DNA from: a virus
Taxonomy: Duplodnaviria > Caudoviricetes
Virus record (IMG/VR): IMGVR_UViG_3300021978_000001
Span: 352,001-416,000 of that record
DNA length: 64,000 bases
Strand: one strand, 5' to 3'
The notes beneath the pieces were generated by a model. It saw only the letters and a program-made list of their open reading frames with translations, did not search any database and was not told the origin of the DNA. Shown here in pieces: positions 132 through 25,643 of this stretch (its first letter is position 1; the number at the start of each line of letters is the position of its first letter). The position numbers and the translations under genes are program-made.

Positions 132-788
132 ATGAGCACACCCCCGGACAGAGATGCTTTCCTGGATACCATGGCCGCGCGCGTTTGCGAGCAAGGGCAT
201 GAGATGCGTGTCACGAGCGCCAGCAAGAATGGACGGCGCTTTCTCGACCTCAGAGGACGGGGAAACGTGTTGATTTGCCCGATGTATGAGGAGACCTTGA
301 AGTTGGTACGTTGGGTAGCAGGTGTCAAGGCTTCTTACACTCTCTCAGAACTGACGCCGCGTGTTCACGCTTCTTTACGAGAAGGCTTGCATTACTTGCA
401 TGCGTGCTCCCGAGAGGAGGTGACGCATCATCTGGGTCAGGAGTACACTTGCGTGGGCTTCGGTGACCTCGATGTCGAGGACGCGAACAGGCTCGCACGA
501 CGTCATGAATGTTTGTTGAGGGAGTTGAATTGCACCTTCGATGAGGATGCCAGCGTTTCTGACGTGTGGTACAAGCATTTCCGCTTACCAAGTGGCTTCG
601 GTTTCCGCATGGCACGTTACAAGAGGAACCCGCTCTTTCTCGATGTCCCCGCCTTCTGCTGCAACTATTCGGGAGACGTGGAGATGTATTTGTGTGCTGT
701 GCGACGCGCGCGAGATGAGTTCGTGACGGTCTCGCGTCACCTCGGAACCCCTGTGCTCTACGCTTCTACGCGTGAGGGAGGTCAATGA
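132..788 (+). CDS. Hypothetical protein, paralogue family A (weak member)
   Basis: ORF 126..788, ATG at 132; C-terminal AVRRARDEFVTVSRHL resembles family A helix; ATGA overlap with next gene. Confidence 0.7.
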   Translation: MSTPPDRDAFLDTMAARVCEQGHEMRVTSASKNGRRFLDLRGRGNVLICPMYEETLKLVRWVAGVKASYTLSELTPRVHASLREGLHYLHACSREEVTHHLGQEYTCVGFGDLDVEDANRLARRHECLLRELNCTFDEDASVSDVWYKHFRLPSGFGFRMARYKRNPLFLDVPAFCCNYSGDVEMYLCAVRRARDEFVTVSRHLGTPVLYASTREGGQ

Positions 789-1441
789 TGCGTAAGGAGT
801 TCGAGAGTCTTTCGGCGCTCCATGGAGCCATACAAGAGGTGTTCGAGCCTTCGATAACGTGGAACCATCGAGGGTACAACCTCACCTCGCTTCCTCTTAC
901 GATTGAAATATCTCAGGAGGGGAGGGAGGACCACATGGTGGTCAATCTTCAGGGCAGGAGAGGACCTATTCTGGTTCATGAAACCCGAGGCGAGGTTCGT
1001 TATCTCTATGCGCAGTATCTCACGGTCGGGGAAGGCGTGAATGAGCCCTCACTTCGCCATGCTGATACGTTCGAGCGTCTCCTGGGAGATGGTGTGTTCC
1101 TTCAGGATGCGACCTCTGGCCGGACGATCGAGTATTACTGGAACCGCAAGCGCTATAACTTGACCCCCGAGGCGGTGCGTGACTTGAAAGAGGCAGGCTT
1201 TCGACGGGTCAGTTGGGAACCCGATTTTACGAGCTGGTCTTTTCCGGGGGGTACCCTGATGTACATCCCCACGATGCCGGGCTTCTTGCCCTACGTCCAC
1301 AAGCTGCCTGATATGGCCACACATGACCTGGACGCAGCTCGGGTAGGGCTCACCTCTTACCGTCGCTTCCTGGACGCCTGGGAGCTTCTGGAGCGTACCG
1401 TGTTCAAGACCGAGTACCTGACGCCACGTGATGAATCGTGA
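785..1441 (+). CDS. Hypothetical protein, family A
   Basis: GGAGG RBS; C-terminal YRRFLDAWELLERTVF. Confidence 0.8.
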   Translation: MMRKEFESLSALHGAIQEVFEPSITWNHRGYNLTSLPLTIEISQEGREDHMVVNLQGRRGPILVHETRGEVRYLYAQYLTVGEGVNEPSLRHADTFERLLGDGVFLQDATSGRTIEYYWNRKRYNLTPEAVRDLKEAGFRRVSWEPDFTSWSFPGGTLMYIPTMPGFLPYVHKLPDMATHDLDAARVGLTSYRRFLDAWELLERTVFKTEYLTPRDES

Positions 1442-1471
1442 TACACCACCCACAAACCAAGAGAAGAGGAA

Positions 1472-1960
1472 GTGATGGCAAAGATCGAAGAGGGAATGTG
1501 GCTTACCTGGCGCGTGGGGCGGCAGTGCTTCATCGGCGGCGCCCTGAAAGACGCGGGATTTGATCATTGGTGGGTCAACAAGCATGAAGGGGATAACCTT
1601 GTCCGGGAGATCAAGCCGGTGGAGGAGCTTGTGCCCTTGTGCCGCACGGACAAACAAAAGGGCGCCTACCTCGTGACGCTTCGCTTGCTCGAAACGTACC
1701 TCGACCCTAGCGCGGGGCGGCAGACGTTGGCGTATCGCATTCCTCCTGCTACACTTTTTTTTGCAGGCAGCATGGCTCCCACGGACTGGACGTCTTTGCA
1801 TCTCGTATACAGCCCTTCGATGGTGCGTCTTCGGAGCGTCGGAGACATGACCATCGAGATCCTCGGGCCGCACGGGACCGCCTATACGTTCCTCTCCGAT
1901 GCCGCGATCGAGTTGTGGGACCTGAAGACACCTGAAGACATCAAGAAGATGCACAAATAG
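1472..1960 (+). CDS. Hypothetical protein
   Basis: GAGGA RBS; fits tandem + strand gene run. Confidence 0.7.
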   Translation: MMAKIEEGMWLTWRVGRQCFIGGALKDAGFDHWWVNKHEGDNLVREIKPVEELVPLCRTDKQKGAYLVTLRLLETYLDPSAGRQTLAYRIPPATLFFAGSMAPTDWTSLHLVYSPSMVRLRSVGDMTIEILGPHGTAYTFLSDAAIELWDLKTPEDIKKMHK

Positions 1961-1968
1961 AGGTAGAG

Positions 1969-2739
1969 ATGACTGTGAACGTTTTACCTTCCATGGCAGA
2001 GATGTTTCGCCAACTGGACCATGCGTTGCCCGAGGGGATGGAAGTGCGTCTTCCTTGCGAACTGGATGCGCTCGACGAGTTTTGGGAAGGCGAGTTGAAC
2101 TTCTGGATCGAAGGTATCTCGACCTGGGATGTGAGCTTCTACCCTCCTTGGGACTACGCGGACGCGTTTCATATGACAACACCACGCCACCACGCCCTGG
2201 GAGAGGTCGAGGTGCTTCGTTTCTCGATCCGTGTCAGAGGCTACTGGCAACATAGCGTCACGAAGGCTCTCGAAGCGGCGCGTGGTGAGCGCATCTATGG
2301 AGATGAAACTACCCTGTCTTCCATTGAGCAAGAGGAGCTTGAGAACCTGCTCGCGGCGCTTGCCGCGATGGAGTTCTACTTTTATCCCGTATCCGGCGTA
2401 TCCGAGATTTATCACTTCCCTGGTTTCCGTGAATACACCTGGACCGAGGAAGCTCGTGCTCTTTTTGCGGGCGCAGGCTTTGAAGAGCAGAATTATCATC
2501 GACGCTGGTTCTCTCATTGGAAGCACATGGCCTCGGGGTCTGAGCTTGGTGTGTTCCGCCTCCTGGGGTATCACACGGGTCTCGTGACATCGAGCTACGC
2601 GCGCGCTGCTACACCAGAAGAGGCTCGACGCGCGCTCGACGCGGAGCGCAAGTTCGTGGATGCCTGGGAGCTTGTCGAGCGCGCCATCATCACGCGTGAC
2701 GATCTCCTCGTGCCTGATCTTATCGCGGGGAGAGACTGA
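1969..2739 (+). CDS. Hypothetical protein, family A
   Basis: GAGG RBS; C-terminal ERKFVDAWELVERAII. Confidence 0.8.
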   Translation: MTVNVLPSMAEMFRQLDHALPEGMEVRLPCELDALDEFWEGELNFWIEGISTWDVSFYPPWDYADAFHMTTPRHHALGEVEVLRFSIRVRGYWQHSVTKALEAARGERIYGDETTLSSIEQEELENLLAALAAMEFYFYPVSGVSEIYHFPGFREYTWTEEARALFAGAGFEEQNYHRRWFSHWKHMASGSELGVFRLLGYHTGLVTSSYARAATPEEARRALDAERKFVDAWELVERAIITRDDLLVPDLIAGRD

Positions 2740-3266
2740 TGCTCTACAACGCCTTCAAGCCCTCTCGCGTGATCTGGCAAGGCCCTCACGAGGACATTGA
2801 CCGCGTGGCTTGGTTCCTGATGCGCTACGAAACGCGTGGGACATATGGGTTCTGGGGGCGCGAGGACATCAAGCTCGGTGCCCTGGTGGAGCGTAGGTTG
2901 GTTATGGGTACCGAGGATGTGTATGGGGACAAGGTAGTACGGAGTTTTCTCTTGTGCGTGACCTTTACCATTCTGGCGTTCGATACGGATAGCCGTTATG
3001 CCACGCGTATGGGAGGCCCCTGGACGCAGCCGATGCCCGAGGGCTACGATTGGGATGCGCGGGGATTCGGATACCTGTTTCACCACTGGTGGACGAAGCG
3101 TTTTGGAACGGATGTCTTGTCTTATCCTTGCCTCACGCCAACACTCGACTTCATGCCTGCCCCGGGTGCCGAGTTGTTGAGTTATGAGGGGTGGCGAGGG
3201 CGCAAGCCTGTGACGGATGAGTGGAACTACGCCAAAGAGGTCGCAGATGCTTTACAACATGTTTAA
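2739..3266 (+). CDS. Hypothetical protein, family B (MLYNAF start)
   Basis: TGATG overlap; full-length paralogue of next ORF (W..MRYE/LRYE, CLxxT, SY[ED]GWxG). Confidence 0.8.
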   Translation: MLYNAFKPSRVIWQGPHEDIDRVAWFLMRYETRGTYGFWGREDIKLGALVERRLVMGTEDVYGDKVVRSFLLCVTFTILAFDTDSRYATRMGGPWTQPMPEGYDWDARGFGYLFHHWWTKRFGTDVLSYPCLTPTLDFMPAPGAELLSYEGWRGRKPVTDEWNYAKEVADALQHV

Positions 3267-3807
3267 ACCGCCCCTCTTCTCCTGGCAGGGAGGTCACCCC
3301 GAGCTGGAGAAGTGCTCCTGGGTGCTGCTTCGTTACGAGCCTTCATACCTCCCGCGTGAGCTGGAGGTCTTGGCCTCGGGTGCGCTCATTTCTCGGTTTT
3401 TCAACCGTAACCGAGGCGGCGAGGAGATCTTGAACATCTCGGTGTGTATGTTGGTGTATCATGTGGATAAACACCGCTGCACGCCGGTCGGGCCTACTTA
3501 TTACTTTAAGCCTCGCGGGCATTGTGCTACAAACTACGCAGACTTGAACATCGACGAGGATTCCTGGAGCAAGGAAGGCTTCGGGCGCCTCATGCAGTTC
3601 GTGTGGACCAAGAACGAGAGTACCTTTTACGACGCGAGGAGGTTCCCTTGCCTCGGTCAAACCCCTGAGATCGAGATGACCCCCGGGAACCTCACGAGCT
3701 ATGACGGGTGGGTAGGCTATGCCCCTTGTCAAGATACCTGGCCTGATTATCGGGACCACGACATATCAGAGGAAGACCTCGCGAAGTTGGTGGAGTTATT
3801 GAAATGA
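3247..3807 (+). CDS. Hypothetical protein, family B (MLYNMF start)
   Basis: In-frame ATG at 3247 with GAGG RBS; paralogue of 2739..3266. Confidence 0.8.
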   Translation: MLYNMFKPPLFSWQGGHPELEKCSWVLLRYEPSYLPRELEVLASGALISRFFNRNRGGEEILNISVCMLVYHVDKHRCTPVGPTYYFKPRGHCATNYADLNIDEDSWSKEGFGRLMQFVWTKNESTFYDARRFPCLGQTPEIEMTPGNLTSYDGWVGYAPCQDTWPDYRDHDISEEDLAKLVELLK

Positions 3808-4397
3808 TCCCCTGGGATGAGTACATCAAGACCTTCCTGCCTTTCGAGGAAGTAAACGCGAAGGTCGAGGGCATCCTCGACGAGCTTGGTATCGAGCGCA
3901 GTTTTGGCAACGTGCTCACGGACTACGAGCTGCGTAGCCCGGATCTTCCGCTCAAGTTCTCGCTCGACGAGTCTACCTGGCATCATGAGGAACTCTTCAC
4001 TTGTGGTGTCATGGATTCGCCTCGTCATTGTCATGAGTTTCGGGAGCAATTTCGAGAGCGCATCAAGGACCTACGCTTTTTCGTGTTCTTTGGCGATTAC
4101 GTGCGGTACTACCACCTTATCTGGGAGGAAGACCTCGCGCGCCCTGACCAGGAGACGCGACGGCAGATCGAAGAGGTCATGGGCTTCAAGTCAACAGACT
4201 ATGGGGAATGTCACAGGACGTATTCTCTTGACGGTTGTTACTTCACGTTCTACTATGTGCCCGACCGCCCTCCAACCTGGACCACAACAGGTGTAGATGC
4301 GCTCGAAAGCATCGATGCCATGCGCGCCTGGGTCGCGAAACAACGTGGGATGATGGAAAAGTGGGAGTACCTGAGACGCACGCTGGGGTGGCCTTAG
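3804..4397 (+). CDS. Hypothetical protein, family A
   Basis: ATGA overlap; QRGMMEKWEYLRRTLG. Confidence 0.75.
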   Translation: MIPWDEYIKTFLPFEEVNAKVEGILDELGIERSFGNVLTDYELRSPDLPLKFSLDESTWHHEELFTCGVMDSPRHCHEFREQFRERIKDLRFFVFFGDYVRYYHLIWEEDLARPDQETRRQIEEVMGFKSTDYGECHRTYSLDGCYFTFYYVPDRPPTWTTTGVDALESIDAMRAWVAKQRGMMEKWEYLRRTLGWP

Positions 4398-5131
4398 CGC
4401 GCACAACAGACGACGTAGAGAGAGTAGAGGAAGTCTTGAGCACCACACCCAAATCCTACCCGAGCCACAAGGAGTTCTTCGAGGAGCTTCTGGCTCCTTT
4501 TGAATCCGAGGTTCACTATAACGTAGGCCGCCCCGAAAGTGGCCTTGAGCTACGTGGAAAAGCTCAGACGCTTTATTGGAATCTGGGATTTCTCACAACG
4601 CATGCGCATGATAAGGCGCGTCAAACCCCACAAGGGAAGAGTTTGACGTCCCTGGATATGTCGCGCGATTGGGGATGGAAAACTATCGCCCACGAAGACC
4701 TCGCGCTCGAAAAGGAGCTTGAGCGCGCCCTCTGGAATGTCGAAGCCTACTTCGATTTTGACCACTACTTCGATGAGGATGTCGCGCACTGGCATGTTCG
4801 CGGGACTGGGGGGTGGCAAGTCGCGCCCGAGGTACGATCCAGGCTCCTGGAGTGTGGCTATACGGTACACAAGGAAGACGCGTGGAAGTTGCACTTGCGT
4901 GATCCGCATGGCGCGCTCATTCTGTACAAGCATCCCGACTACACGCCTGTGTGGCAAAGCGGCGCGACCGAATGTGATGACCCCGAGCGAGGTCGCGTGT
5001 GGCTTTCGGAGCAACGTGCCTCCCTTGAGCGTTGGGAGTTCGCGAGGCGCGCGTTGCTGACCGGGGAGCATTTTATCAAGTATGACTTCGATGGGAACGT
5101 CATCGAACATAGCAAGAAGGCAGTTGGATGA
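4388..5131 (+). CDS. Hypothetical protein, family A (start uncertain)
   Basis: ORF 4235..5131, GTG at 4388 chosen to limit overlap; QRASLERWEFARRALL. Confidence 0.7.
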   Translation: MALARTTDDVERVEEVLSTTPKSYPSHKEFFEELLAPFESEVHYNVGRPESGLELRGKAQTLYWNLGFLTTHAHDKARQTPQGKSLTSLDMSRDWGWKTIAHEDLALEKELERALWNVEAYFDFDHYFDEDVAHWHVRGTGGWQVAPEVRSRLLECGYTVHKEDAWKLHLRDPHGALILYKHPDYTPVWQSGATECDDPERGRVWLSEQRASLERWEFARRALLTGEHFIKYDFDGNVIEHSKKAVG

Positions 5132-5898
5132 CGGTCAAGGTTCTCTTCAGTGATAAAGACCCGGGTGCGGGCGAGGAACATGACTTCTTTGTGGGGCAGA
5201 GTGTCCTTGAGATCTATGCACACCTGCGCCGTGTGTTCTCACATCGTTACGCGTGCACCCTGGCAGACTACCACGAGGATTGCCCCGAAGCGGACCTCGC
5301 GCTCACGCATGGTGTCGCCTTCCCTTACGACGATGCGTTCTTGACCTTTGAGGCGGAGGGACGCATCGACGACATCATGTTCACCACGCTCAAGCTGTAC
5401 ATGCCTCATGCAGGGCAACAAGGAGGCCCGCTTGAGTTCACGCACAGGGTCGAGTGGGAGGCGTACAACAAGGGGTACAACACCACCAACCCCAGAGCTT
5501 ACCAGGCAAAAGTGCAGATGGTCAAAGACGTCTTCGAGACGCTCGAACATCACACCACACATTGGGAGACGGAGGGGGTGACCCATCGTTGGGGAGGCTT
5601 CGATGCTCCTCGGGTGTCCAAAAAAGCGCACCGCAAGCTCGAAGAGATCGGATACACTCGGGTGTACGAGGGCATCAATGTCACGCGTTACGCGTGTCAC
5701 GGGACGCACCTGGAAGTCTACCACACGCACGCCATCCCCCCACGTTGGGGTAACGTCAAGGTCGCTCCTGATGATGTCGAGAGCGCGCGAGCCTGGTTGA
5801 CGGATGCGCGTCGTGCGGTCGATATGTGGGAGGCCGCGTGTCGTACCGTGTTTACAGAGCCCTACCTTCAGCGACGCAAGTCCACAAAGAGGAAGTGA
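5128..5898 (+). CDS. Hypothetical protein, family A
   Basis: ATGA overlap; HRWGGFDAP and ARRAVDMWEAACRTVF. Confidence 0.8.
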   Translation: MTVKVLFSDKDPGAGEEHDFFVGQSVLEIYAHLRRVFSHRYACTLADYHEDCPEADLALTHGVAFPYDDAFLTFEAEGRIDDIMFTTLKLYMPHAGQQGGPLEFTHRVEWEAYNKGYNTTNPRAYQAKVQMVKDVFETLEHHTTHWETEGVTHRWGGFDAPRVSKKAHRKLEEIGYTRVYEGINVTRYACHGTHLEVYHTHAIPPRWGNVKVAPDDVESARAWLTDARRAVDMWEAACRTVFTEPYLQRRKSTKRK

Positions 5899-5899
5899 T

Positions 5900-6577
5900 A
5901 TGTTGCAACGTGATCGTACATTCGAGGAACTCCAGGTGTGGGGGGTGCTCGAAGAGGACGCGAAGTCTTCTGGGTTGACATGCGCTTGCGAGGTGTACCA
6001 TGAGCTGCATGGTTGGGAGTTTGTGATCAGGCAACCCCTTTATAAGGTGACCCTCACCGCGTCGTTCCTTTCGGCGCACCGTTCAAAGATCCCCAAGCCA
6101 CCTCTCGTGCGATTTACCTTGTGGCTTTGTTTTGGGGAGGACAATACCGTCATCGAGGAAGCTCAATGGGATATGGATGTCTCCCGCTTCAAGCGTGACA
6201 CACCCCTCAAGCACGTCTTGTTGGCGGGGCTGGAGTTGTATCAGCGTCATGATCGCGCGCGCAAGGAGGATGCTGCTGAGTGCCTCGAACAGGTCATGAG
6301 CTGGGCTGTGCTACTTCACCAGTTGTACGGGAACGTGCAGTATAGCGAGGACCTGCGGATGTCTGATCTGGTGATGCAAGCACATTACTATCACGAACTG
6401 CGTCTCAGTGAGCTGGGGATCGTGCTACTTGGAGGGGTTACAGAAGCACCCACGGACGTGCGCGAGCTGACGTGGTATGGGGAGGTGTTGCCGACTCGAC
6501 TCGGGCGAGGCACCACGACCGTCTTTACCATGATGAGCCTTCCGTCCAACCCCTTTTACGTTGGCGTGCTTTCGTGA
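5900..6577 (+). CDS. Hypothetical protein
   Basis: In-frame ATG at 5900, 1 nt after previous stop, GAGGA RBS. Confidence 0.7.
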   Translation: MLQRDRTFEELQVWGVLEEDAKSSGLTCACEVYHELHGWEFVIRQPLYKVTLTASFLSAHRSKIPKPPLVRFTLWLCFGEDNTVIEEAQWDMDVSRFKRDTPLKHVLLAGLELYQRHDRARKEDAAECLEQVMSWAVLLHQLYGNVQYSEDLRMSDLVMQAHYYHELRLSELGIVLLGGVTEAPTDVRELTWYGEVLPTRLGRGTTTVFTMMSLPSNPFYVGVLS

Positions 6578-6592
6578 TCCACAGGTGATAAG

Positions 6593-7276
6593 ATGCCCTT
6601 GCATAGACATGAGAGCTTGATCATCCTGCCGCCTCTGGAGCGCGCATTGGATGCTGCTGCGGACAGGCTTGTCCACCCATATCAGCACGTGATGCACGAG
6701 GTAGTGGGGGATGCCTTCGAGTTATACTTCGAGCGTCCTGATTTTTTCCTGTCCTTTCGCGCACGCTTCAAGCCTCAAATCGCGCCCGAAGGTTACTTGA
6801 ACTACGCGGGTGACCCTCAGTTTCGCTTCGAGTTCATCTTGAAGGTCAAGGAGTGGGGTGATTATGCGGGGCCGCTCCCTGACGAGTACAGCAACCTGTT
6901 CGACGTGATCGACCCTACATTGTGCTTTACTTCACGTGGTGAGATCGAGATCCCCGTGGAGCCCCGGACCACCATGTACGATTTCATCCTGCACGTGACC
7001 AGCACGCTTTGTGTCCGCATCGCGCAAATGGACTATAACCTGGATCATGTCTCGCCCTTGATGCGGATGTCCTGGTTCCTGGTGGCGCTGCGTGCGCTCA
7101 AGCACAGCGACGCTCGGCTGGGTCGAAATGTCTTCGATGATTGGATCGTCGCGTCGCATCGAAAGCACAACGCGTATGTCAAGCACCAACACGAGCAGTA
7201 TTCCCCTGGGCTCCCCCTGCGGATCGAGTATCGGAAGTGGTGTCACGAGGTCATGACCACCTATCTCTTGCCTTGA
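6593..7276 (+). CDS. Hypothetical protein
   Basis: 227 aa ORF in tandem run, AGGTG RBS. Confidence 0.7.
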   Translation: MPLHRHESLIILPPLERALDAAADRLVHPYQHVMHEVVGDAFELYFERPDFFLSFRARFKPQIAPEGYLNYAGDPQFRFEFILKVKEWGDYAGPLPDEYSNLFDVIDPTLCFTSRGEIEIPVEPRTTMYDFILHVTSTLCVRIAQMDYNLDHVSPLMRMSWFLVALRALKHSDARLGRNVFDDWIVASHRKHNAYVKHQHEQYSPGLPLRIEYRKWCHEVMTTYLLP

Positions 7277-7286
7277 AGGGGTACTT

Positions 7287-7742
7287 ATGTTGATTCCATG
7301 CTTTGACTTCGAGTTGGAACGCTGGAGCTTTGAAGGCCCGGCAGTTTCCATGCGTGATCTGGAAGCGCATGACGAGCATATTATTCACATGGCCGTGGAG
7401 TTTCCCTCGAAATGGCGCATGTTTCTCAAGAGTGGCATTTATCGGAATGTGCGGCCTGCTCAACCTGATTATCGCTCGACAGCGGTCTATTTCTATTCAC
7501 CGGACCAAGAGGACCTCGTGATTGACCCTCGCAACCCGCCGCCTCCAGGGTACGCAGGGGCGAGGCGACTGGGAGTGCGCGCGCTTGATTGCCCGAAAGA
7601 CCAGTTGGTGCTTCGGGAGATGTATTCGTTGCGGCAGGTGCCGCATCACCATATGAAGGACTTGTTGATTCCAGACGCGCAGAAGCGCCTGTACGCGCGG
7701 AGCCTGGAATACATCATCTACATGTTGGAGCGTGGTCGGTGA
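7287..7742 (+). CDS. Hypothetical protein (MLIPCF start, family B-like)
   Basis: AAGGGG RBS; tandem run. Confidence 0.7.
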   Translation: MLIPCFDFELERWSFEGPAVSMRDLEAHDEHIIHMAVEFPSKWRMFLKSGIYRNVRPAQPDYRSTAVYFYSPDQEDLVIDPRNPPPPGYAGARRLGVRALDCPKDQLVLREMYSLRQVPHHHMKDLLIPDAQKRLYARSLEYIIYMLERGR

Positions 7743-8275
7743 TCAGGAACGCTTTTCGGCTCACATTAGACATCGACAACAGGCAGGTGCCTCGCATCGC
7801 CATGGTTCGTGGATACCCCGTCGAGCTTACCCATCGGCGTCGCCTGGGGCTCGTGATCGAACCGATCGAGTGGCTCGGACCCGAGGGTTACCTGTGGAAA
7901 GGGCGCCTTGCCTGGTTCGAGCTGAATACAGACTTCTGGGCATTTGGTAAGACCTACCACCTCAAGGGGCACGAGCCGCCTTACGTGCGCATGTTCCTGA
8001 TGGCGAACCGTCGTGATGTCGCGATAAGTTCGCTGCCATGCGACTTCCAAAAGGAGATGCTCCGCGTTGCCGAGTTTGGTGTCGCGTTGCGTCATGTCGA
8101 GATGGCAGACCCCTGGCTCACCAAGCTCAAAGAGCATTATGGCGGCGCCTACCCTCGCAACACAGAGCGTTGGACACCGCAGCCCTATGTCTATCCCTTC
8201 ATGGAGCCTCCACGACCTGCTCGTTCGTTCGCTGATATTCTTGCAGGGATTCAAAGGACTTACCAAAATGCGTGA
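7739..8275 (+). CDS. Hypothetical protein, family B-like (MIRNAF start)
   Basis: GTGA overlap at 7739, in frame with ORF 7589..8275. Confidence 0.7.
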   Translation: MIRNAFRLTLDIDNRQVPRIAMVRGYPVELTHRRRLGLVIEPIEWLGPEGYLWKGRLAWFELNTDFWAFGKTYHLKGHEPPYVRMFLMANRRDVAISSLPCDFQKEMLRVAEFGVALRHVEMADPWLTKLKEHYGGAYPRNTERWTPQPYVYPFMEPPRPARSFADILAGIQRTYQNA

Positions 8276-8882
8276 TCTGACAATTTATCCTGACATCGAC
8301 GCCATGTGGAACTCGCTGATCCCCGAGGCTCCGCGTTATATGGACCCCTACGTGAGCGATCATCGGTTGCATCTTCCCATCCTCGCGGGAGAGGATGTGC
8401 TGTACCTTGGCAACAAGGAGCCGCTCATTCGTCAAACCCGTGAGGGAGAGTGGCTCGCGCTCGCCAACATTCAGGTAGGCATCGGGGGTATCATGCAATA
8501 TGCCAGCCTGGATGAGATCGGGGACTTACCGGATGTGGGGACCGCGTTTACCTCACCTCGGGCATGGTACGGGGATGTGTATCACGAGGGTAAGCGGACA
8601 CGCTTTCTGCATTATTGGCATGGTTTCCGCGCGCCCATGCTCACCGAGGCGCAAGACGCCTTTCGGGAGAGCCTTGACTTGACGCTTTCTGCGGAATACT
8701 ATTGGTTCTCTACGCTGCGAATCAACCCAGCATGTGTAATCGAGGTGTACCATATCGAAGAGGTGCTGCCGATGCTCCGGGTCTTGTCTGGTTTCAAGCA
8801 AGATAATGAGGAGGCGCGGCAACACCTGGCGTGGGTCAGGGAAGGTGTGGAGCTGTTGGAGTTATTGAGGAGGTCCTGGTGA
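8268..8882 (+). CDS. Hypothetical protein, family A
   Basis: In-frame ATG at 8268 with AAGGA RBS; HYWHGFRAP and VREGVELLELLRRSW. Confidence 0.75.
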   Translation: MRDLTIYPDIDAMWNSLIPEAPRYMDPYVSDHRLHLPILAGEDVLYLGNKEPLIRQTREGEWLALANIQVGIGGIMQYASLDEIGDLPDVGTAFTSPRAWYGDVYHEGKRTRFLHYWHGFRAPMLTEAQDAFRESLDLTLSAEYYWFSTLRINPACVIEVYHIEEVLPMLRVLSGFKQDNEEARQHLAWVREGVELLELLRRSW

Positions 8883-9703
8883 GAGGTCAGTACACGCATT
8901 ACGCGAGCGAAGATGATGCGAAGACCGAGCTGTGCGAGCGCATAAGGCGCGCGGGTTACGACGTGCATCACGATGGCAACTTGATTGTCTTTCGTCTCAA
9001 TGAGCGAGATACGGCGCGCATTCTGTTTCGGGTCAACTCCGAGTTCTTTGAATGGGGCGAATGCCCTGTCGCTTGGCGTGTCCACGATCGGCATCTCGAC
9101 CAGGTACAGCAAGCCTCCCTGGAGCTTTACATCCGCAGGGGGGCAGCAGGTAGTGCAGGCTCCCATGTGGAGACTTATGACGAGCTGTGGTGTGGCTTCC
9201 CGGAAGAGGAGGAAAAAGACAACTACAAGCTGCGCGATACCTCTCGGCTGGAACGCTTGTTGGACGTGCTCAGGGACTTCAAGGCGAGCTATTGGTATCG
9301 AGAGGATACCTACGTCTTCTTGCATGGGATGGGCTTCGGGAGCTTCCCTGTGGCGCTCGATGCTCGTCTTCAGGATCTCGGTGGAAAGCGCTTCAAGCAC
9401 TACTGGACCAAGTATGCGTGCAACTACCTCTTCGATCAGGGCGCGCATCATCCGTTCGTGCTCACGATTCCGGTCGAGACCTCTCTTCGCCCGAACCTCA
9501 TGTTCACCGACAAGTACGACGACCCCGTGCATCTGGAGTTCACGACGCCGCGTCAGCTCGAAGAGTTCGCGCGCGCCTCTCGGTTGACCGCCGAACTTTT
9601 CAACACCATCTTGCGCGCGGTCCAGGATGTACGCGAGCACGACATCTTTCCCTCTCCTCTCCCGCTTGACGCGCCCTCGCCTTCTGTTGTTAATGTTGCT
9701 TGA
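8879..9703 (+). CDS. Hypothetical protein
   Basis: GTGA overlap with GAGGAGG RBS; ORF 8831..9703. Confidence 0.7.
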   Translation: MRGQYTHYASEDDAKTELCERIRRAGYDVHHDGNLIVFRLNERDTARILFRVNSEFFEWGECPVAWRVHDRHLDQVQQASLELYIRRGAAGSAGSHVETYDELWCGFPEEEEKDNYKLRDTSRLERLLDVLRDFKASYWYREDTYVFLHGMGFGSFPVALDARLQDLGGKRFKHYWTKYACNYLFDQGAHHPFVLTIPVETSLRPNLMFTDKYDDPVHLEFTTPRQLEEFARASRLTAELFNTILRAVQDVREHDIFPSPLPLDAPSPSVVNVA

Positions 9704-9728
9704 CGCTTGCCTTGCTTTAAGGTATAAA
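9700..9728 (+). promoter_or_regulatory. Sigma70-like promoter TTGACG-N17-TATAAA
   Basis: Near-consensus -35/-10 at 17 bp spacing in an AT-rich gap upstream of 9783. Confidence 0.75.
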
Positions 9729-9782
9729 GAGGTCTCGAACCTTGAATCTCGAAAATGGAAATGCGAGACGATACCTTGAAAC

Positions 9783-10172
9783 ATGGGAGAGCATGAGATG
9801 AATGAACAACAGACGAAAGCCGCGAGGCTCCTGGCTGGGCTGGTGTGTGACTTCTATGAGGGTACGCGCAAGCTCGTCGAACTCGACATGCACGAGTATG
9901 GCTTGCAAGCCTACATCAACGTGCAATACTACCAGAGCTGGCTGCTGCCCTACCGCAAGTCGAGCTTGCGACCAGAGTACCTTTACAAGCAAGGCGCGTT
10001 CGGGGCTTATGTGGGCTTTATGCCCGCGAGCAAGGAGGAGGTCGCGCAGTTCACGGACATGCTTCGCGAGGTCGCGACCGAGCGGGGATGTCAAGCAGCG
10101 CTCGACATGCTCGATGCTTCACCGAGCGTTAAAGCAGGCGATAACTCCGGTGATACCTCGGGTGGCGCGTGA
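9783..10172 (+). CDS. Hypothetical protein
   Basis: First ORF after promoter; start could be 9798. Confidence 0.7.
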   Translation: MGEHEMNEQQTKAARLLAGLVCDFYEGTRKLVELDMHEYGLQAYINVQYYQSWLLPYRKSSLRPEYLYKQGAFGAYVGFMPASKEEVAQFTDMLREVATERGCQAALDMLDASPSVKAGDNSGDTSGGA

Positions 10173-10843
10173 TGATAGACAAGAGACACTTCGAGAGCTT
10201 CGACCACCTCACAACGCATATCCAGCGTAACGTCGATGTGCGTCTGTATGGGGATGCGTATGATGAGGGGTGGGCGCTCGGGCAAGAGCGTAACGCATCT
10301 TGTGGTAACCTCGAACTCATCTCGGTGCATCTCGAATACTACCCCGAGGACTGCCAGTACCTCAACGGGTTGTATTACTTCTTCGACTCGATTCAGGACT
10401 TGGAGCGCGAGGTGGAGAAGGATTGGTTCTGCATGAGCCGGTACATGACCCTAGAAGACGTGGAGCGAGGCTTGGAAGTCATGAACGCCTTTCGCGATGT
10501 CGAGTACACTGTGGACCTCGGGAAGGAGCGCACGGGGCTCTGGAAGGGTTTTCAGGCGCCTCCTGGAATCAGTGAAGGGACACGCGCCCGCGCAAAAGAG
10601 TTGGGGGTCCGGCGATTCAACAAGCGGACGTACTGGTCACAAGATTTTATCCTCGAAGGTGGTGAACCTTTCGAGAAGCATGTGACTTTCTACTTCCACC
10701 CGGACGTGCCTGTACGTTATGCGCTCCCAATGCGGACCCTCAAAGGGGTCGAGGCAGGGCGTGAGACGCTCGCGAGGATGAGGACGTTTCTCGACCGCCT
10801 CGAATTGATCGAGCGCTTGATCGGCACCGAGGCATACAAGTGA
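10169..10843 (+). CDS. Hypothetical protein, family A
   Basis: GLWKGFQAP and RMRTFLDRLELIERLI. Confidence 0.8.
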   Translation: MMIDKRHFESFDHLTTHIQRNVDVRLYGDAYDEGWALGQERNASCGNLELISVHLEYYPEDCQYLNGLYYFFDSIQDLEREVEKDWFCMSRYMTLEDVERGLEVMNAFRDVEYTVDLGKERTGLWKGFQAPPGISEGTRARAKELGVRRFNKRTYWSQDFILEGGEPFEKHVTFYFHPDVPVRYALPMRTLKGVEAGRETLARMRTFLDRLELIERLIGTEAYK

Positions 10844-11361
10844 CATTGATCAACGCTTTTCGACCTGCAACCTTCAAGGCGTACAGCGAGTACCACTGTG
10901 GCGGCGTGATCTCTTCGTTCGCTTATCGAGGGGGGTATCTCGGGCTTGCGGCTGATCTTTACTACGATGATCCTGTCGAGGGGGTGCATGGTTATGGCCT
11001 CACGTTGACGTGTTACAGCAAGGGACCTCCCCGGGTCCCCGCGCCACGCGATGAATGCCCCAATCAGGGGCCTCCCGAGACATGGGTCTTATACGAGTAC
11101 AAGAATCCTTTGAGCCATCTCCAGGGCTCTTTGGATCTTCATGAGCTGGACCCTGAATGGGTGCGCGGAGAGAAGCTCTTGTGGGCGTTCGGACACCTTT
11201 ACATGAAGGTGGTGGAGCAGGGTGATCTGCCCTACTGGCCGATCTTGTGGAAGCCTGAATATACCGAGAGTTTGCCGCCTTGTGTTCGTTGGTTCGAGCC
11301 TCATGACTATCACTCCTATCCCCACCTCTTGTGCAAGGATACACACCATGAGCCTAGATGA
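10840..11361 (+). CDS. Hypothetical protein, family B (MTLINAF start)
   Basis: GTGA overlap; LINAFRP matches LYNAFKP. Confidence 0.75.
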   Translation: MTLINAFRPATFKAYSEYHCGGVISSFAYRGGYLGLAADLYYDDPVEGVHGYGLTLTCYSKGPPRVPAPRDECPNQGPPETWVLYEYKNPLSHLQGSLDLHELDPEWVRGEKLLWAFGHLYMKVVEQGDLPYWPILWKPEYTESLPPCVRWFEPHDYHSYPHLLCKDTHHEPR

Positions 11362-12151: not shown

Positions 12152-12153
12152 TC

Positions 12154-12182
12154 TTTACAAGACGCGCGCGTTGTGGTATCTC
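12154..12182 (+). promoter_or_regulatory. Promoter-like TTTACA-N17-TATCTC
   Basis: Intergenic; same TTTACA-N15-GG-TA layout as other promoters in window. Confidence 0.5.
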
Positions 12183-12219
12183 CAGGGAGACGGCATTCAC
12201 TCGAACCCCTGGAGGACTC

Positions 12220-13041
12220 ATGCCAGAAGTCAAACACTACGAGGACCCCGAAGGCTTTGTCCTGATGATGGGGGAGCTGCAACACGAGATCGAACGTCTC
12301 CTGGCTGCCCGCGACTTTCTGTCCAACTACAAGGTGTACCTGTTCAAGTCACCGCACAAGGTGCACCAGATCCGTGTCCAGACCAGGGAGTACCTCTACT
12401 CTTTCGAGTTTCGCCTCTCCGAGAGCGCCGTGGTTCACGTCGAGCAAGGAGAGGTGGACTTGATGGATCTGTGCGTCAGCGTGCAGGGTGGGAAGCTCCT
12501 CTCGATCGACGTCCTGAAACACGAGCGCGATATTGCGGTGTGGGAAGCGGCCTGGAAGCAGCGCATGAAAGCGGACTTGCCTTCTGAAGTGGTGACGCTG
12601 CTTCAAACGGTCATGCAAGGACTCAAGACGTATCGCGTGGCATGGTTTGGTGAGCGCTTGCTCGGCCCCTCTTCCTACCAAATGTGGAATGGCTATGACT
12701 ACCACGAGGTCACGCCTGCGTTGCACGAAGAGATCGCGGCGCTCGGGTGGAAGGCAGGCGCGTTGTTGAGCACCTGGAACAGCCGTGTTCTCGATGCGCC
12801 GTCTTCGACGTGGGCCACGACGTGGTGGGGGCGCGGTCAGGAGATGTTCCGCATCTACCATGACCTGTCTTTGCGTCCTGCATGCAGCTACGACTTCGAC
12901 CATCTTCGCTCCGAATACGCCACGGTAGATGCGCTCGACCAAGCTGTGCAACGGATCTTGCGTGAAGCGGTGTATCCTGCGCGTGCGCTCGAAGACCTGT
13001 TGACGCAGCACCGCGTGGCGAGCCAGGAGCGCGAAGCATGA
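12220..13041 (+). CDS. Hypothetical protein, family A-like
   Basis: GGAGG RBS before ATG 12220; YQMWNGYD and C-terminal helix. Confidence 0.7.
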   Translation: MPEVKHYEDPEGFVLMMGELQHEIERLLAARDFLSNYKVYLFKSPHKVHQIRVQTREYLYSFEFRLSESAVVHVEQGEVDLMDLCVSVQGGKLLSIDVLKHERDIAVWEAAWKQRMKADLPSEVVTLLQTVMQGLKTYRVAWFGERLLGPSSYQMWNGYDYHEVTPALHEEIAALGWKAGALLSTWNSRVLDAPSSTWATTWWGRGQEMFRIYHDLSLRPACSYDFDHLRSEYATVDALDQAVQRILREAVYPARALEDLLTQHRVASQEREA

Positions 13042-13700
13042 CGTTGGATGTGCATGGCTTTCGTGAACACCTTGTCCAGCTCGTGGGGGGTGAATGGGTA
13101 GGGGAGTACCTGCTCGTGGTAGAGTCACGCGATCTATTCATGCACCTTCAGGTGAGCGTCTTCGGCGGTCGCGAAATCGGTGAGAGGCTGCATCACCCTG
13201 AGATCAAGGTGTACGTGTACAATCGCTTGCGGCTCAACGACAAGGGGGAGCCTTCACTGCGATGTTGGACCCACGATGCCATGCTCACGTCGGAGGATTA
13301 CAAGAGAGACCGCGAGGATTACACCGGGGGGCAACTTCGACAGATACAGACATGGCTCGATGCCTTGCCACAAACGCCTGTGAGCTACGAGGACAAGCGC
13401 GGGACACATTTGTGGGCGTGGGCTCACCTTCCTGTCCCGGACCACACAGCGATGCTCTTACGCAGCATAGGCGCCGAACCTCTTTCTCGCGAAGATTACA
13501 CATGGCGGCATCGTCCGTTTTCGAGCCCCTGGCAGCTCGGAGAGGCTGTGTATGAGATCTTTCATGTCGCAGGTATCCCGCCCCGCTTGCCGCTGCAAGC
13601 CTGTGAACTGGGAAGTAACGAGGACGCGCGCGCGTACCTTGCCCGCGTTCGGCGCCAGGTCGATCAATACGAACTGATTCTACGAACCTTGAGGAGATGA
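13038..13700 (+). CDS. Hypothetical protein, family A
   Basis: RVRRQVDQYELILRTL. Confidence 0.8.
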   Translation: MTLDVHGFREHLVQLVGGEWVGEYLLVVESRDLFMHLQVSVFGGREIGERLHHPEIKVYVYNRLRLNDKGEPSLRCWTHDAMLTSEDYKRDREDYTGGQLRQIQTWLDALPQTPVSYEDKRGTHLWAWAHLPVPDHTAMLLRSIGAEPLSREDYTWRHRPFSSPWQLGEAVYEIFHVAGIPPRLPLQACELGSNEDARAYLARVRRQVDQYELILRTLRR

Positions 13701-13701
13701 T

Positions 13702-14409: not shown

Positions 14410-15179
14410 TTTATAACGACTCTGCTTCTTTCCTGGAATCCTTTCTCGAACGCTCGGCAGATCTCGCGGCGTTGCATGGCTTGAATGGCAGGAGGGCGGG
14501 ACCTAGCTCACGGCGCCAGGGAGCTGTCATGTGGAATCGTGAGGGCACGTGCTACGAGTTCAGGCTGTTGCTCAAAGCGACCAGCGCGACGGAAGGTGTA
14601 GCGTTGCTCGCAGGGTTCTTTGTGTTGCAGAACGACGACGGGGACCCGTTGGGTGCAATCCTCAATTTCACGCACAAGCAACAGATCGAAGAACGTTCCC
14701 TTACCGTGAAAGTGGTGCAAAACGATAGTCTTAATCCCGAGCTGTTTTATCAACAGCTCGGGTACCCTGACGAGTCCTTCTTTCTTCCGGCACTCCTCAA
14801 CCTTTTCGAGTCCATCGAGCCTTGCGCCTTTCGCCATGAAGGGCGTGTGTATCACTGGGAGGGGTTCGCGCCCGATTGGAGTGCTCTGAATCAACATGAA
14901 CCTTTGCTGGTCGAGATGGGCGGGGTGCGCCTCGACGAGGATGCCCTGGATCTCGGGCTCTTTCAGGAGAGCTTGTTTCGGGTGTACCACTTCGAGTATG
15001 AGGACCATGCGTTCTACTTCGCGCCGTGCGTGCGAAAGGAGATCGCGCCGATCTTTTTGAACATCGAGACCTTCCCGAGCATGCTCAGTCCTCGTGACCT
15101 CTTGCGTCGCTACCGTAAAGCGGTGGACACCTACGAGCTGCTTTCGCGCACGATCAACACCCAGGGATCTGCTTCATGA
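14406..15179 (+). CDS. Hypothetical protein, family A
   Basis: YHWEGFAP; YRKAVDTYELLSRTIN; close paralogue of next gene. Confidence 0.85.
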   Translation: MIYNDSASFLESFLERSADLAALHGLNGRRAGPSSRRQGAVMWNREGTCYEFRLLLKATSATEGVALLAGFFVLQNDDGDPLGAILNFTHKQQIEERSLTVKVVQNDSLNPELFYQQLGYPDESFFLPALLNLFESIEPCAFRHEGRVYHWEGFAPDWSALNQHEPLLVEMGGVRLDEDALDLGLFQESLFRVYHFEYEDHAFYFAPCVRKEIAPIFLNIETFPSMLSPRDLLRRYRKAVDTYELLSRTINTQGSAS

Positions 15180-15931
15180 TTTATGAAACCAAAGCAGACA
15201 TGCTTCGAGCCCTGCAAGAGCGTCTCGAAGATGCCTTGCCTCCTGGGCTCGATGTGCGCGGTTGGGAAGCCTCCATAAGCGTGACGGGTACCTGGAGCGC
15301 GTACAGGTTTTACCTGCGCGAATATCCCTTGAGCGCGACACAGGGACTCGCGCTCCTCTCAGGTACACTGGAGCATAATGAGCCCGGGGGTGGTTACATG
15401 GCAGACCACGCGCGGATAAGCCCTATTACTCACGAACAACAGTTGCTTGAGCGTCGTGTACAGGTGGACCCTGGGGGTCGTTACGGGTACAGTGGTGATC
15501 TCTACCATGAGCTGGGGTACGGGAGTGAGCGTGACCCCTCCCGCGCCGTGCCATTGATCATGCAAGCGTGGCGTGATCCTGTGGCTTACCGCGAAGGAGA
15601 GCGCGTGTTCTATTGGGCTGGCACCAATCCCTCCTGGGATGCTCTCGATCAGCATGAGCCTTTCCTGCGCGAGATGGGGGGCGAGCGCCTCGACGAGGAT
15701 GTGTGTGATCTGGGGGCTTTCTTCGAGTATGCGTTCAGGGTGTACCGCTTCACCACGCAAGCCTACGACTTCTGTTTCGTGTTGTGCGTGCTCCCTGTCG
15801 TGCGCCCCATGTTTCGTCTCGTCGAGGAAGGGCTCTGGCTTGAGCCTCGTGAGCAGCTCCAACGCTCGCGTCGCGCTGTGGAGCTTTACGAAACACTCAC
15901 CCGGACGATTTACCCAGGAGAGATGCCATGA
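15176..15931 (+). CDS. Hypothetical protein, family A
   Basis: FYWAGTNP; SRRAVELYETLTRTIY. Confidence 0.85.
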   Translation: MIYETKADMLRALQERLEDALPPGLDVRGWEASISVTGTWSAYRFYLREYPLSATQGLALLSGTLEHNEPGGGYMADHARISPITHEQQLLERRVQVDPGGRYGYSGDLYHELGYGSERDPSRAVPLIMQAWRDPVAYREGERVFYWAGTNPSWDALDQHEPFLREMGGERLDEDVCDLGAFFEYAFRVYRFTTQAYDFCFVLCVLPVVRPMFRLVEEGLWLEPREQLQRSRRAVELYETLTRTIYPGEMP

Positions 15932-16728
15932 CCCGTCAACCGAGGACCCCTGAAGAACGTCGCCTCGGAGAGGATCGTCTCTGGTTCTCGAACCATGGCG
16001 AGCTTCGCGTGTGGTTGGAAGAGGAGCTATGGTCCCTTGTCGAGGCGGAGATCTTACCCCTGGAAAAGGCACCGCAACGCACCGAGCATGATGTGACGTG
16101 GGGCGCGCGCCAGGAGTTTTTCCTGACCATGGGAGGAGGAGGCTTTCGATTCTATGAACATGCGTATCAAGCTCATTTCTACATGGAGTGGTGGGAAGAA
16201 CACTGTCCTCGCAGCGCAAGCCTTTACAGAAAACGTGACGCGACAAACCTCCTCGAAGAGCTTGGTCAGGCGCGTCAACAAGAGGATGGTGGGCGTGATC
16301 AGGTGACGCTCACGGACTGGTTCATGCTCGAAGATCCTGATTACTTGACGCACCTTCACGCCGTGTTCGACCACTTCGCCTACAAGCCTGTGGGCATCCG
16401 GGGAGGCACGGGGAAGCAGCTCGTCATTTGCAATGGCTTCGACCCCTTCGACATGAGCGCACACTTCACAGATCTTGAAGACAAACTCGGGTGGAGGGTC
16501 GTGCCCTCTTCGGATGATGACCTTTCCATCGTGCACTTCGAGCATGGCAAGGTGTTGATCCCTCATGATGCCCGGCTCACGCCTCTCATGCACTTCAATA
16601 CCACGGAACACTGCTACGACCCGCAAGAGATCCAAAAGGTACTTGACGGGCAGCGTAAAATGCTGCAACAATTCAGGCTGTACTTGAGGATGTATCGCGA
16701 CAGGCAGAACGTCAGAAAGAGTGTGTGA
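15928..16728 (+). CDS. Hypothetical protein, family A
   Basis: ICNGFDP; QRKMLQQFRLYLRMY; similar to next gene. Confidence 0.75.
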   Translation: MTRQPRTPEERRLGEDRLWFSNHGELRVWLEEELWSLVEAEILPLEKAPQRTEHDVTWGARQEFFLTMGGGGFRFYEHAYQAHFYMEWWEEHCPRSASLYRKRDATNLLEELGQARQQEDGGRDQVTLTDWFMLEDPDYLTHLHAVFDHFAYKPVGIRGGTGKQLVICNGFDPFDMSAHFTDLEDKLGWRVVPSSDDDLSIVHFEHGKVLIPHDARLTPLMHFNTTEHCYDPQEIQKVLDGQRKMLQQFRLYLRMYRDRQNVRKSV

Positions 16729-17450
16729 TGGAACGTCAATGGTTTGACACCAGGGAAGATCTGGTCGAGTGGATGGTCGCGCAACTGCGCGCGTTGGAAG
16801 ACCAGGGCGCCTTTTTGGACGTGCGCGTCGAGTATGAGGCGAAGCGCTCTTATGCCATAAAGTTGAATCGGTACTGGGATTTGTACATCACCTCACCATG
16901 GTTCGCGGGAGATTCACACATTCAGGGTATTTCGGTGTTCCTGGAGTGGAGCCATGCGGACCATTACGAAAGTCTGGGCACGCTCGAAGAGATCGAACGA
17001 CGCCTCGCGAATGACGTGTCCGCCTCCCTGCGCTACGAAGATGTTGCGGTGATCGCGCGTCACTTCAAGGATGTGCGATGTGGCGTGCGTGAGTATGAGC
17101 ACGAAGGGTTAAAGCATGTCGCGATCTGGAACGGCTTCTCGCCTTCGGATCGCGCACAGGATTTCGCGCTGCTCGAAGAGCTTTGGGGGTGGAAGTGCCG
17201 CCCCAGTGGGTATTGGTACAAGCGCGCCGATGTAGAGGGGTTAAGCCTGGATGTCCCTCGTGATGCCTTGCTTCCCTTGCGACTTACTTTGAGCGGTGGT
17301 CTTTCTTTCACGGACCCTGACGCGTTCGAGGCGCATCTCGGGAAACAGAGACGCGTTCTGGCGCAGTGGCGCACCTACAGGCGTATGGTGAATAGAAGGC
17401 AGGACACAGAAGCAGGAGAAGCAGATGTTGGAAGCAGTGTGGAACTTTGA
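16725..17450 (+). CDS. Hypothetical protein, family A
   Basis: IWNGFSP; QRRVLAQWRTYRRMV. Confidence 0.75.
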   Translation: MMERQWFDTREDLVEWMVAQLRALEDQGAFLDVRVEYEAKRSYAIKLNRYWDLYITSPWFAGDSHIQGISVFLEWSHADHYESLGTLEEIERRLANDVSASLRYEDVAVIARHFKDVRCGVREYEHEGLKHVAIWNGFSPSDRAQDFALLEELWGWKCRPSGYWYKRADVEGLSLDVPRDALLPLRLTLSGGLSFTDPDAFEAHLGKQRRVLAQWRTYRRMVNRRQDTEAGEADVGSSVEL

Positions 17451-24644: not shown

Positions 24645-24655
24645 AGGATACCCCC

Positions 24656-25618: not shown

Positions 25619-25643
25619 CACCACATTGAAGAAGAGTGTGTAA

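Follow-up and report, generated by a model that had tools for sequence, protein, structure and literature searches.

Old tandem paralogues sharing a conserved C-terminal module form a 28-member gene array in a marine huge phage

Why should a phage keep a long row of similar-sized but strongly diverged genes side by side? The question is raised by positions 132 to 17,450 of a 64,000-nucleotide window, that is, the whole stretch of DNA analysed here, which corresponds to bases 352001–416000 of the IMG/VR virus record IMGVR_UViG_3300021978_000001 (Duplodnaviria; Caudoviricetes). The record is 437,490 bp long, carries direct terminal repeats and is rated complete. The original prediction, made from the sequence of the window, had recognised about 16 divergent paralogues (family A) with a conserved C-terminal helix, and had read them as a gene accordion of one scaffold with variable surfaces. 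The results below show that family A is an old multigene family confined to one phage lineage. Its copies derive from old tandem duplication rather than from ongoing amplification, and they join a conserved C-terminal module to a highly variable N-terminal part.

In a profile search of the whole genome, family A amounts to 28 tandem members within 31.4 kb (338,069 to 369,447 in genome coordinates), all on the + strand, which is approximately 7% of the 437-kb genome. The array starts about 14 kb upstream of the window edge. The window edge therefore cuts the array, and the set observed in the window, 17 members, represents the downstream 55% of it. All 16 open reading frames (ORFs) named previously are present on the + strand at the starts given, with lengths of 197–274 aa, and all 16 belong to the family; one further copy in the window (8879–9703) had been missed. 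Two of the listed GTG starts have an ATG 3 nt later (10172 and 16728). Genome-wide, the proteins range from 193 to 274 aa. A second assembly of the same phage (L001), a 429-kb scaffold, is 99.995% identical over 19.7 kb, and the stretch is also covered by relatives' contigs in seawater and marine metagenomes. The data set that best covers the DNA itself is a hydrothermal-vent metagenome, and this may be its source.

The membership is supported by comparisons of several kinds. All-versus-all BLASTP connects many of the listed ORFs, for example 14406/15176 (E 1.2e-41), 15928/16725 (E 7e-10) and 785/5128 (E 2e-7), where members are designated by their start in the window. A hidden Markov model (HMM) built from six seeds picks up seven further members among the 545 six-frame ORFs of the window (E 2.7e-9 to 0.013), and an iterated HMM converges on the 17 window members, adding 8879. 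An HMM derived from 10 members outside the window places 14 window members above all others of the genome's 3,643 six-frame ORFs (E 6e-14 to 0.04), with member 1969 first (E 6.3e-14), and the first unrelated ORF appears at E 0.53. In a split-half HMM test on the last 115 residues against 350 decoy C-termini, from which the held-out E values in Table 1 are taken, 25 of the 28 held-out members score above all the decoys. The failures are 8879, 12220 (E 1.0) and one upstream copy, while 132 is marginal. Held-out members are thus recovered by the six-seed, the outside-window and the split-half HMMs.

The signatures from which the family had been proposed are also borne out. The strict C-terminal helix pattern matches nine ORFs in the whole genome, every one of them a member. 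In an alignment of 62 sequences comprising the paralogues and their orthologues, 52 of 58 sequences retain the G of the central W-x-G-F(-x-P) motif, and 42 of 58 retain the aromatic residue next to it. The least typical copies keep part of these features. Member 132 has a diverged terminal helix and a central V-G-F motif. Member 8879, recovered by the full-length iterated HMM only, keeps G-F-G-S-F-P, L-x-D-L-G, P and an R...L....R helix, with ratios of nonsynonymous to synonymous substitution (dN/dS) of 0.18–0.19. Member 12220 has W-N-G-Y, L-G-W, Y-H and P motifs and a diverged terminal helix.

The idea of one scaffold with variable surfaces holds insofar as a conserved module is joined to a highly variable part, but the similarity is confined to the C-terminal ~115 residues (C-module). 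In the N-terminal parts, held-out members do not beat the decoys of the split-half test, and the N-terminal 80–160 residues are, as judged by sequence profiles, too diverged for family-wide recognition. The motifs of the C-module follow the order W-x-G-F, L-x-E-x-G, Y-H, P and an R..RR..D..E...R helix. Mean column identity in the 62-sequence alignment is only 13%, and the conserved columns are a His before the C-module, the Gly of W-x-G-F, the Gly of L-x-E-x-G, one Pro, and a stripe in the last helix. The stripe consists of R201, L204, R208, R/K209, D/E212, E215 and R219 (numbering of the 16728 protein), which gives the pattern R-x6-R-[RK]-x2-[DE]-x2-E-x3-R on a long amphipathic terminal helix; R208 and R219 are retained in more than 90% of the 62 sequences. 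From their spacing of three to four residues, we infer that the stripe residues lie on one face of the helix, beside its hydrophobic side.

The composition of the proteins is biased as well. The members are acidic (median pI 5.6; median net charge -9.5), with the charge residing mostly in the N part; the net charge is negative in 27 of the 28, and the median for the C-module is -3. Trp makes up 3.05% of the residues in the members versus 1.06% in the background of long ORFs of the genome. Such an acidic, Trp-rich composition fits protein binders better than general nucleic-acid binders.

Structures were predicted with AlphaFold2 for the 5128 protein (model 1; alignment of 17 rows) and the 16728 protein (model 2; alignment of 62 rows). 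In model 1 only residues 120–245 are confident (predicted local distance difference test, pLDDT, 74–96), and they form a helix, a hairpin, a helix, four strands and a 24-residue helix. Model 2 has a mean pLDDT of 71.5, and its C-terminal module (pLDDT 82–95) matches the module of model 1. The C-module is thus predicted as a beta-alpha-beta4-alpha sandwich, at pLDDT 82–96 across both models. Predicted structures unrelated apart from a generic amphipathic helix had been named as evidence that would speak against the family; instead, the two members give the same C-terminal module. In model 2, the N-terminal unit likewise runs strand, helix, four strands, helix (pLDDT 74–86 for the first 50 residues and 50–64 beyond), and the 16728 protein looks like two beta-alpha-beta4-alpha modules in tandem. 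A comparison of its N part with its C part by hhalign, made with an imprecise cut, gives no similarity (probability 0.07%), so that the two-module idea is drawn from model 2 only.

The Foldseek comparison that had been proposed finds nothing at E 0.001 or better in the PDB (both models) or in BFVD. Shape searches of the ESM Atlas give template modelling (TM) scores by query of at most 0.39, and feature searches there yield no usable match. A profile search of the PDB gives a best E of 0.059, to unrelated proteins.

The age of the family shows in the divergence of its copies. Paralogue identity is 13–39%, and the 28 paralogues form a star-like tree whose tips are very long (median tip length 1.76 substitutions per site). 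The only groups supported in it (Shimodaira-Hasegawa-like approximate likelihood ratio test, SH-aLRT, ≥ 84) consist of neighbours: 14406/15176, the genes at 348.8 and 349.6 kb of the genome, and 3804/4388. Member 14406 has its closest paralogue in the next gene, 15176 (39% identity over the full length; tree sisters at SH-aLRT 97).

The relatives provide a second view of the same process. L003 and L004 are approximately 77–83% identical in nucleotides, L009 is a 74.7-kb contig whose family members are mostly 90–98% identical in protein, and L006 is a short, distant contig with two tandem members. Gene order is kept, and each paralogue has its own orthologue in L003 at 58–88% identity. The dN/dS values are 0.09–0.37 against L003, where member 132 (60% aa identity) has 0.37, and 0.09–0.41 against L009. 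These values indicate purifying selection and that every copy is maintained. Copy number and order are the same in L001 (99.995% in nucleotides) and in L009 (~92–96% in amino acids). The sole difference in the number of family A copies seen among the relatives is in L004, which at 5748–7823 has three extra family A genes in approximately 2 kb; they are absent from the corresponding place of the genome, which lies before the window, at about 345.65 kb.

The term gene accordion, in the sense of recent amplification, is therefore not appropriate for copies that are 13–39% identical, colinear 1:1 in the relatives and under purifying selection. The poxvirus accordions, such as K3L amplification, consist of recent, near-identical and unstable tandem copies (PMC6115191, PMC9973261). 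Family A resembles them in having tandem copies with a trace of recombination between copies, namely a 47-nt patch described below, but its copies are old and stable, and it is therefore not an accordion of the poxvirus type.

The 47-nt patch lies in the terminal helix and is identical at 46 of 47 positions between window 1373–1419 (member 785) and genome 349477–349523. The two genes are 3.9 kb apart and otherwise about 30% identical in protein; the partner lies 2.5 kb before the window start. A 23-nt core of the patch is identical in five sequences from three lineages, synonymous sites included. The pattern suggests either gene conversion or a constraint at the nucleotide level.

Recombination of another kind is suggested by the comparison with L009. 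In members 785, 4388, 8268 and 13038, N-terminal or middle segments are only 12–60% identical to L009 (dS 1.2–1.8; dN/dS about 0.3), while the last 40–100 codons are nearly identical (dS 0.03–0.15); a short piece of 12220 is likewise divergent. The replaced part comprises the N-terminal ~100 codons in 4388 (dS 1.2–1.5 at codons 1–80 vs 0.04–0.18 at codons 121–200) and the N-terminal ~160 codons in 13038 (dS 1.3–1.8 at codons 1–160 vs 0.15 at codons 161–200). In 8268 it is the middle (codons ~45–160), with identities of 91–95% at the N end, 14–45% in the middle and 96% at the end. In 785 the N part is 55–62% and the C part 95–100% identical. In the assembled contig the replaced segments appear as joints, at 4395–4694 for 4388 (run X3), 8407–8808 for 8268 and 13015–13408 for 13038. 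The high dS in these segments indicates allele replacement by recombination with a distant relative, and not a burst of point mutations. An excess of segment replacement in family A is suggested by these comparisons.

Table 1. Family A members, promoter-like motif sites and neighbouring features in the window (window coordinates; held-out E values from the split-half C-module test)
Feature	Coordinates	Strand	Evidence or remarks
Family member, 218 aa, marginal	132..788	+	Held-out E 0.005, above all decoys
Family member, 218 aa, strict RRFLDAWELLERT helix	785..1441	+	Held-out E 1.1e-12
Family member, 256 aa	1969..2739	+	Held-out E 1.4e-11; dN/dS 0.14-0.16
Family member, 197 aa, shortest in window	3804..4397	+	Held-out E 6.3e-9; dN/dS 0.13-0.17
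Family member, 247 aa, GTG start	4388..5131	+	Held-out E 1.6e-10
Family member, 256 aa, structure model 1	5128..5898	+	Held-out E 2e-15; dN/dS 0.09-0.11
Family member, 204 aa	8268..8882	+	Held-out E 2.3e-10
Probable diverged member, 274 aa, GTG start overlapping previous stop	8879..9703	+	Full-length iterated HMM E 2.3e-4
Family member, 223 aa	10172..10843	+	Held-out E 1.4e-9; dN/dS 0.16-0.20
Family member, 267 aa	11348..12151	+	Held-out E 7.6e-7; dN/dS 0.16-0.19
Probable diverged member, 273 aa	12220..13041	+	Full-length iterated HMM E 3.3e-5; dN/dS 0.14-0.17
Family member, 220 aa	13038..13700	+	Held-out E 1.6e-8
Family member, 235 aa	13702..14409	+	Held-out E 1.8e-10; dN/dS 0.29 vs L009
Family member, 257 aa	14406..15179	+	Held-out E 2.3e-11
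Family member, 251 aa	15176..15931	+	Held-out E 3.5e-13; dN/dS 0.16
Family member, 266 aa, chain 1 of complex prediction	15928..16728	+	Held-out E 1.2e-11
Last array member, 240 aa, structure model 2	16728..17450	+	Held-out E 2e-15
Promoter-like motif sites	12154-12178, 33901-33925, 54231-54255	+, +, -	3 in window vs 0.00 expected
Family B genes, 173-189 aa	2739-3266, 3259-3807, 10840-11361, 17810-18379		HMM finds four
Seven interspersed genes, 124-227 aa	5900-8275, 1472-1960, 9798-10172, 17425-17805		
Thymidylate synthase-like gene	24641-25618		Translation read
Adjacent small acidic paralogues	25644-26150, 26147-26527		BLASTP E 1e-5
Dihydrofolate reductase-like gene	26457-27185		Translation read
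R2K-clade ATP-grasp gene	27155-28018		Confirmed by Pfam
GyrA	31550-33841		

Outside this lineage, family A has no relatives in the collections searched. There is no relevant Pfam family for 10 members at E up to 1 (KA1 included), no NCBIfam match for the 17 members and no PHROGs match for 10 members at E up to 0.1. PADLOC gives nothing usable, with one of the 17 members at E 0.0075 to a model of unknown function. Among 5.8 billion proteins, a word-indexed search finds no carriers but this phage and two relatives. An exhaustive profile search against 1.84 billion representatives gives 24 matches; 21 of them match copies of this very genome along the greater part of their length, with 60–100% identity, and four other profile matches are diverged members, three of which were located, all on contigs of relatives. 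No longer fused forms were found, which by the tool's own note is weak evidence. Neither IMG/VR (queried with one member) nor the JGI metagenomes (queried with a three-member alignment) gives a confirmed relative, megablast of the array against GenBank phages gives no match, and literature searches on phage paralogue arrays returned nothing relevant. As far as these collections show, family A is private to one lineage of marine huge phages.

The arrangement of the genes bears on when and where the proteins act. The claimed coupling by ATGA/TGATG overlaps is found at 9 of the 16 junctions before members, as 4-nt ATGA/GTGA overlaps, and the remaining overlapping junctions measure 1, 8, 10 or 14 nt. 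A GGAG/GAGG box stands upstream of most member starts.

The few intergenic gaps of the array have a motif in common, mostly of the form TTTACR-N12-TTGTGGTA, which is arranged like a -35 box with an extended -10 box. The motif occurs at 54 sites in the genome versus 0.15 expected from shuffles, and it follows the strand of the local genes. Of these sites, eight fall within or next to the array, each on the + strand. The part of the array inside the window contains a single site (12154–12178), in the 68-nt gap before the 12220 gene, and a further one lies 145 nt before the window start; with one internal site and one just upstream, the 17 window members form two long coupled operons. L003, L004 and L009 retain the motif in their orthologous gaps, with spacers that have diverged, and the site at 12154–12178 is itself conserved in the L009 and L003 gap. 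No site is found at 192.3–285.7 kb, a 93-kb block with the HK97-type capsid gene, where approximately 11 would be expected at the genome density. From its position, we infer that the motif marks a sigma-70-like class of promoters for non-structural genes, and that the function of the family is not a late, virion-module one. A generic scan for sigma-70 promoters and terminators gives counts no higher than in shuffles. No RNA data set is listed for the stretch, and the one small metatranscriptome from the source sample gives no contig over it, neither of which bears on expression. At a subset of the motif sites a second conserved box, TCAGTAAGTGTACGG, lies downstream. The largest gap in the window's part of the array (9704–9797, 94 nt) is without the motif; an imperfect inverted repeat, GTCTCG...CGAGAC, is seen in it by eye.

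The flanks of the array consist of genes for nucleotide metabolism and replication. An aspartate carbamoyltransferase-like gene lies upstream, and thyA, a dihydrofolate reductase gene, an R2K ATP-grasp gene and GyrA lie downstream (Table 1). Directly downstream of the paralogue region, these genes include a nucleotide-metabolism cluster at 24641–28018. The two small acidic paralogues that adjoin each other there both have Glu/Asp-rich tails.

What may such an array do? We tentatively favour the view that family A is a panel of intracellular binders, each with a constant C-module as a handle and a variable N-terminal head. The proteins would be adaptors or inhibitors at work inside the infected cell rather than in the virion. 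The constant C-module would dock to one shared partner or pair with other members, and the variable N part would set the target of each copy, which may be host proteins, components of host defence or parts of competing phages. This view is favoured because N-terminal and middle segments are swapped between relatives while the C-modules stay near-identical, because the copies are kept 1:1 under purifying selection, and because there is a three-member turnover in copy number in L004. The intracellular role is favoured because the promoter-like motif is absent from the capsid block and the neighbours are genes of nucleotide metabolism and replication.

Several observations weigh against this binder view. 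Gene-wide dN/dS is below 1, which gives no hint of positive selection. Low-identity segments relative to L009 are likewise present in the non-family genes 7287 and 17810, and the median identity to L003 is about 74% for the members and about 68% for the interspersed genes, that is, the family evolves no faster than its surroundings; considering these low-identity stretches and the lack of excess divergence, the segment replacement cannot be regarded as proven to be specific to the family. The Arg, Asp and Glu residues of the stripe could be mere helix-stabilising salt bridges. Both structure models depend on shallow alignments of the family itself, the models in the ESM Atlas have pLDDT of about 0.4, and the N-terminal module is confident in model 2 only. 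Finally, the promoter class is assigned from the location of the motif.

An alternative, which we consider unlikely, is that the members associate with each other, in hetero-oligomers or in a larger assembly inside the cell, in which the C-module would be the interface and the paralogues specialised subunits. It is in accord with the strict 1:1 persistence of all copies under purifying selection and with the translational coupling of neighbours, but gene overlaps are general across this genome and thus not specific evidence for complexes. Segment alleles at 12–60% identity, together with the gain or loss of three copies, would be unusual for obligate subunits of a fixed assembly. A complex prediction, proposed earlier for neighbouring members, passes for 15928 and 16728 with a score of 0.41 versus 0.00 for the best of three controls (runs agreeing in at least 68% of contacts; partner pLDDT at least 68), which lends weak support. 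In the calibration of the tool, 58 of 80 solved complexes score high enough to pass, as do 2 of 110 mismatched pairs, and scores at 0.60 or under comprise 7 of the 80 solved complexes and both of the passing mismatches; these counts hold only roughly here, because custom alignments were used. By this calibration, a pass at such a score is more often wrong than right unless there is a strong prior, and paralogue pairs can score through likeness to a homodimer.

Slightly less probable still is a putative substrate-receptor system, in which the C-modules would plug the 28 proteins into one hub (a phage or host machine, or each other), and N modules shuffled by recombination would each capture a different protein of host defence or of a competitor phage.

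A binding of structured RNA, DNA or acidic lipids, in the manner of KA1/TBP-like domains such as the KA1 domains of METTL16/TUT1 or MARK/Kcc4, would make the proteins regulators of RNA or membranes, and we regard it as improbable. With an exhaustive aligner, weak neighbours of the C-module common to both models are the KA1 domain of Chk1 (5wi2), the N-domain of RNase H3 (4py5), 3rpj, 9o5d_E and the C-terminal domain of AMPK alpha; those of the N-module of model 2 are the VCR of METTL16 (6m1u) and TUT1 (9j8p). The halves of model 2 both align to KA1-type domains, among them 6m1u (Z 5.8, root-mean-square deviation (rmsd) 3.0 A, 84 residues) and 5wi2 (Z 5.6, rmsd 3.1 A, 72 residues), and model 2 also aligns to 9j8p (Z 5.5) and 3ost (Z 4.9); the C half of model 1 behaves alike. 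The likeness lies in the predicted order of the elements in the C-module and also in the predicted N-module of model 2, and the two nearly invariant arginines would suit such a role. On the other hand, the alignments as a whole give Z of 4.6–6.6, the best covering 63–87 residues at rmsd 2.4–3.3 A, a range that is common for unrelated chains by the tool's calibration, and they should therefore be taken as a description of topology and not of homology. There is also no sequence match to these domains (the Pfam search above, at E up to 1, includes KA1), the proteins are acidic and without overall basic character, and the beta-alpha-beta4-alpha sandwich is widespread and used for many purposes.

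The T4 ip loci offer another comparison. They are tandem genes with a short conserved part and a hypervariable body, differ between related phages and are aimed at host defences; in the T4 internal proteins the conserved part, an N-terminal leader for capsid targeting, is removed by cleavage. By likeness to these loci, family A proteins might be packaged and injected, with the module directing them to the capsid or ejection path, and the variable part taking effect in the newly infected cell. We consider this a poor prospect, although a constant part and a variable body in tandem phage genes are common to both. In family A the constant part is a folded C-terminal module of ~115 residues, with no shared N-terminal leader. 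The array also sits among nucleotide-metabolism genes, over 100 kb away from the capsid gene and distant from the head module, and the putative promoter motif that precedes its operons does not occur in the capsid block.

That the members are decaying or functionless duplicates, or over-called ORFs of a high-GC genome, is hardly credible in spite of the lack of known domains and the very low pairwise identity, since it is contradicted by the selection data (frames open in three diverged lineages at dN/dS 0.09–0.41), and since the motifs are conserved despite a mean column identity of 13% and the genes have ribosome-binding boxes, coupled starts and a C-module of confident fold.

Family A is not alone in its operons. 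A second set of genes, family B, is interleaved with it (Table 1) and is characterised by an MLYNAF or LINAF N-terminus. As a candidate relative of family A it was rejected (hhalign probability 0.6%; unrelated). The family B copy at 3259 is without a counterpart in L003, and the downstream ORFs up to about 24 kb have only a short ML[IY]N start in common with family B. Seven other interspersed genes match neither family nor any entry of Pfam or PHROGs, and none of the family libraries searched (Pfam, PHROGs, NCBIfam, PADLOC) gives a usable match for the interspersed genes. Their identities are 54–90% to L003 (six covered) and 79–95% to L009, and the same operons may carry them as additional cargo.

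Giant eukaryotic viruses characteristically carry large tandem families of old paralogues that govern their host range and immune evasion; in phages, to our knowledge, such families are little documented. In kind, family A is closest to the multigene families (MGF) of large eukaryotic DNA viruses such as African swine fever virus, whose MGF360 and MGF505 are described as tandem diverged paralogues that vary in copy number between isolates and are thought to be directed at the host and not at particle building (PMC10006314, PMC12197721). The likeness lies in many old, diverged tandem paralogues within a large DNA virus, 28 of them on one strand in the present case. The differences are that family A shows no sequence relationship to these families (Pfam, E up to 1), that it has a conserved C-terminal alpha+beta module with a variable N part, and that its array lies inside the genome amid nucleotide-metabolism genes and not at genome ends.

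We rate family A as a new protein family and its array as unusually large and orderly for a phage. If the proteins are indeed a panel of intracellular binders, they would represent a new scaffold for a phage counter-defence repertoire, and, for an uncultured marine system, 28 ready probes of functions of hosts or competitors. If they instead form a substrate-receptor system, the array would be a phage counterpart of eukaryotic adaptor families and of giant-virus multigene families, built on a previously undescribed two-module protein. Even without a function, the array indicates that part of the 'dark matter' of huge phages is structured, selected paralogy and not random ORFans.

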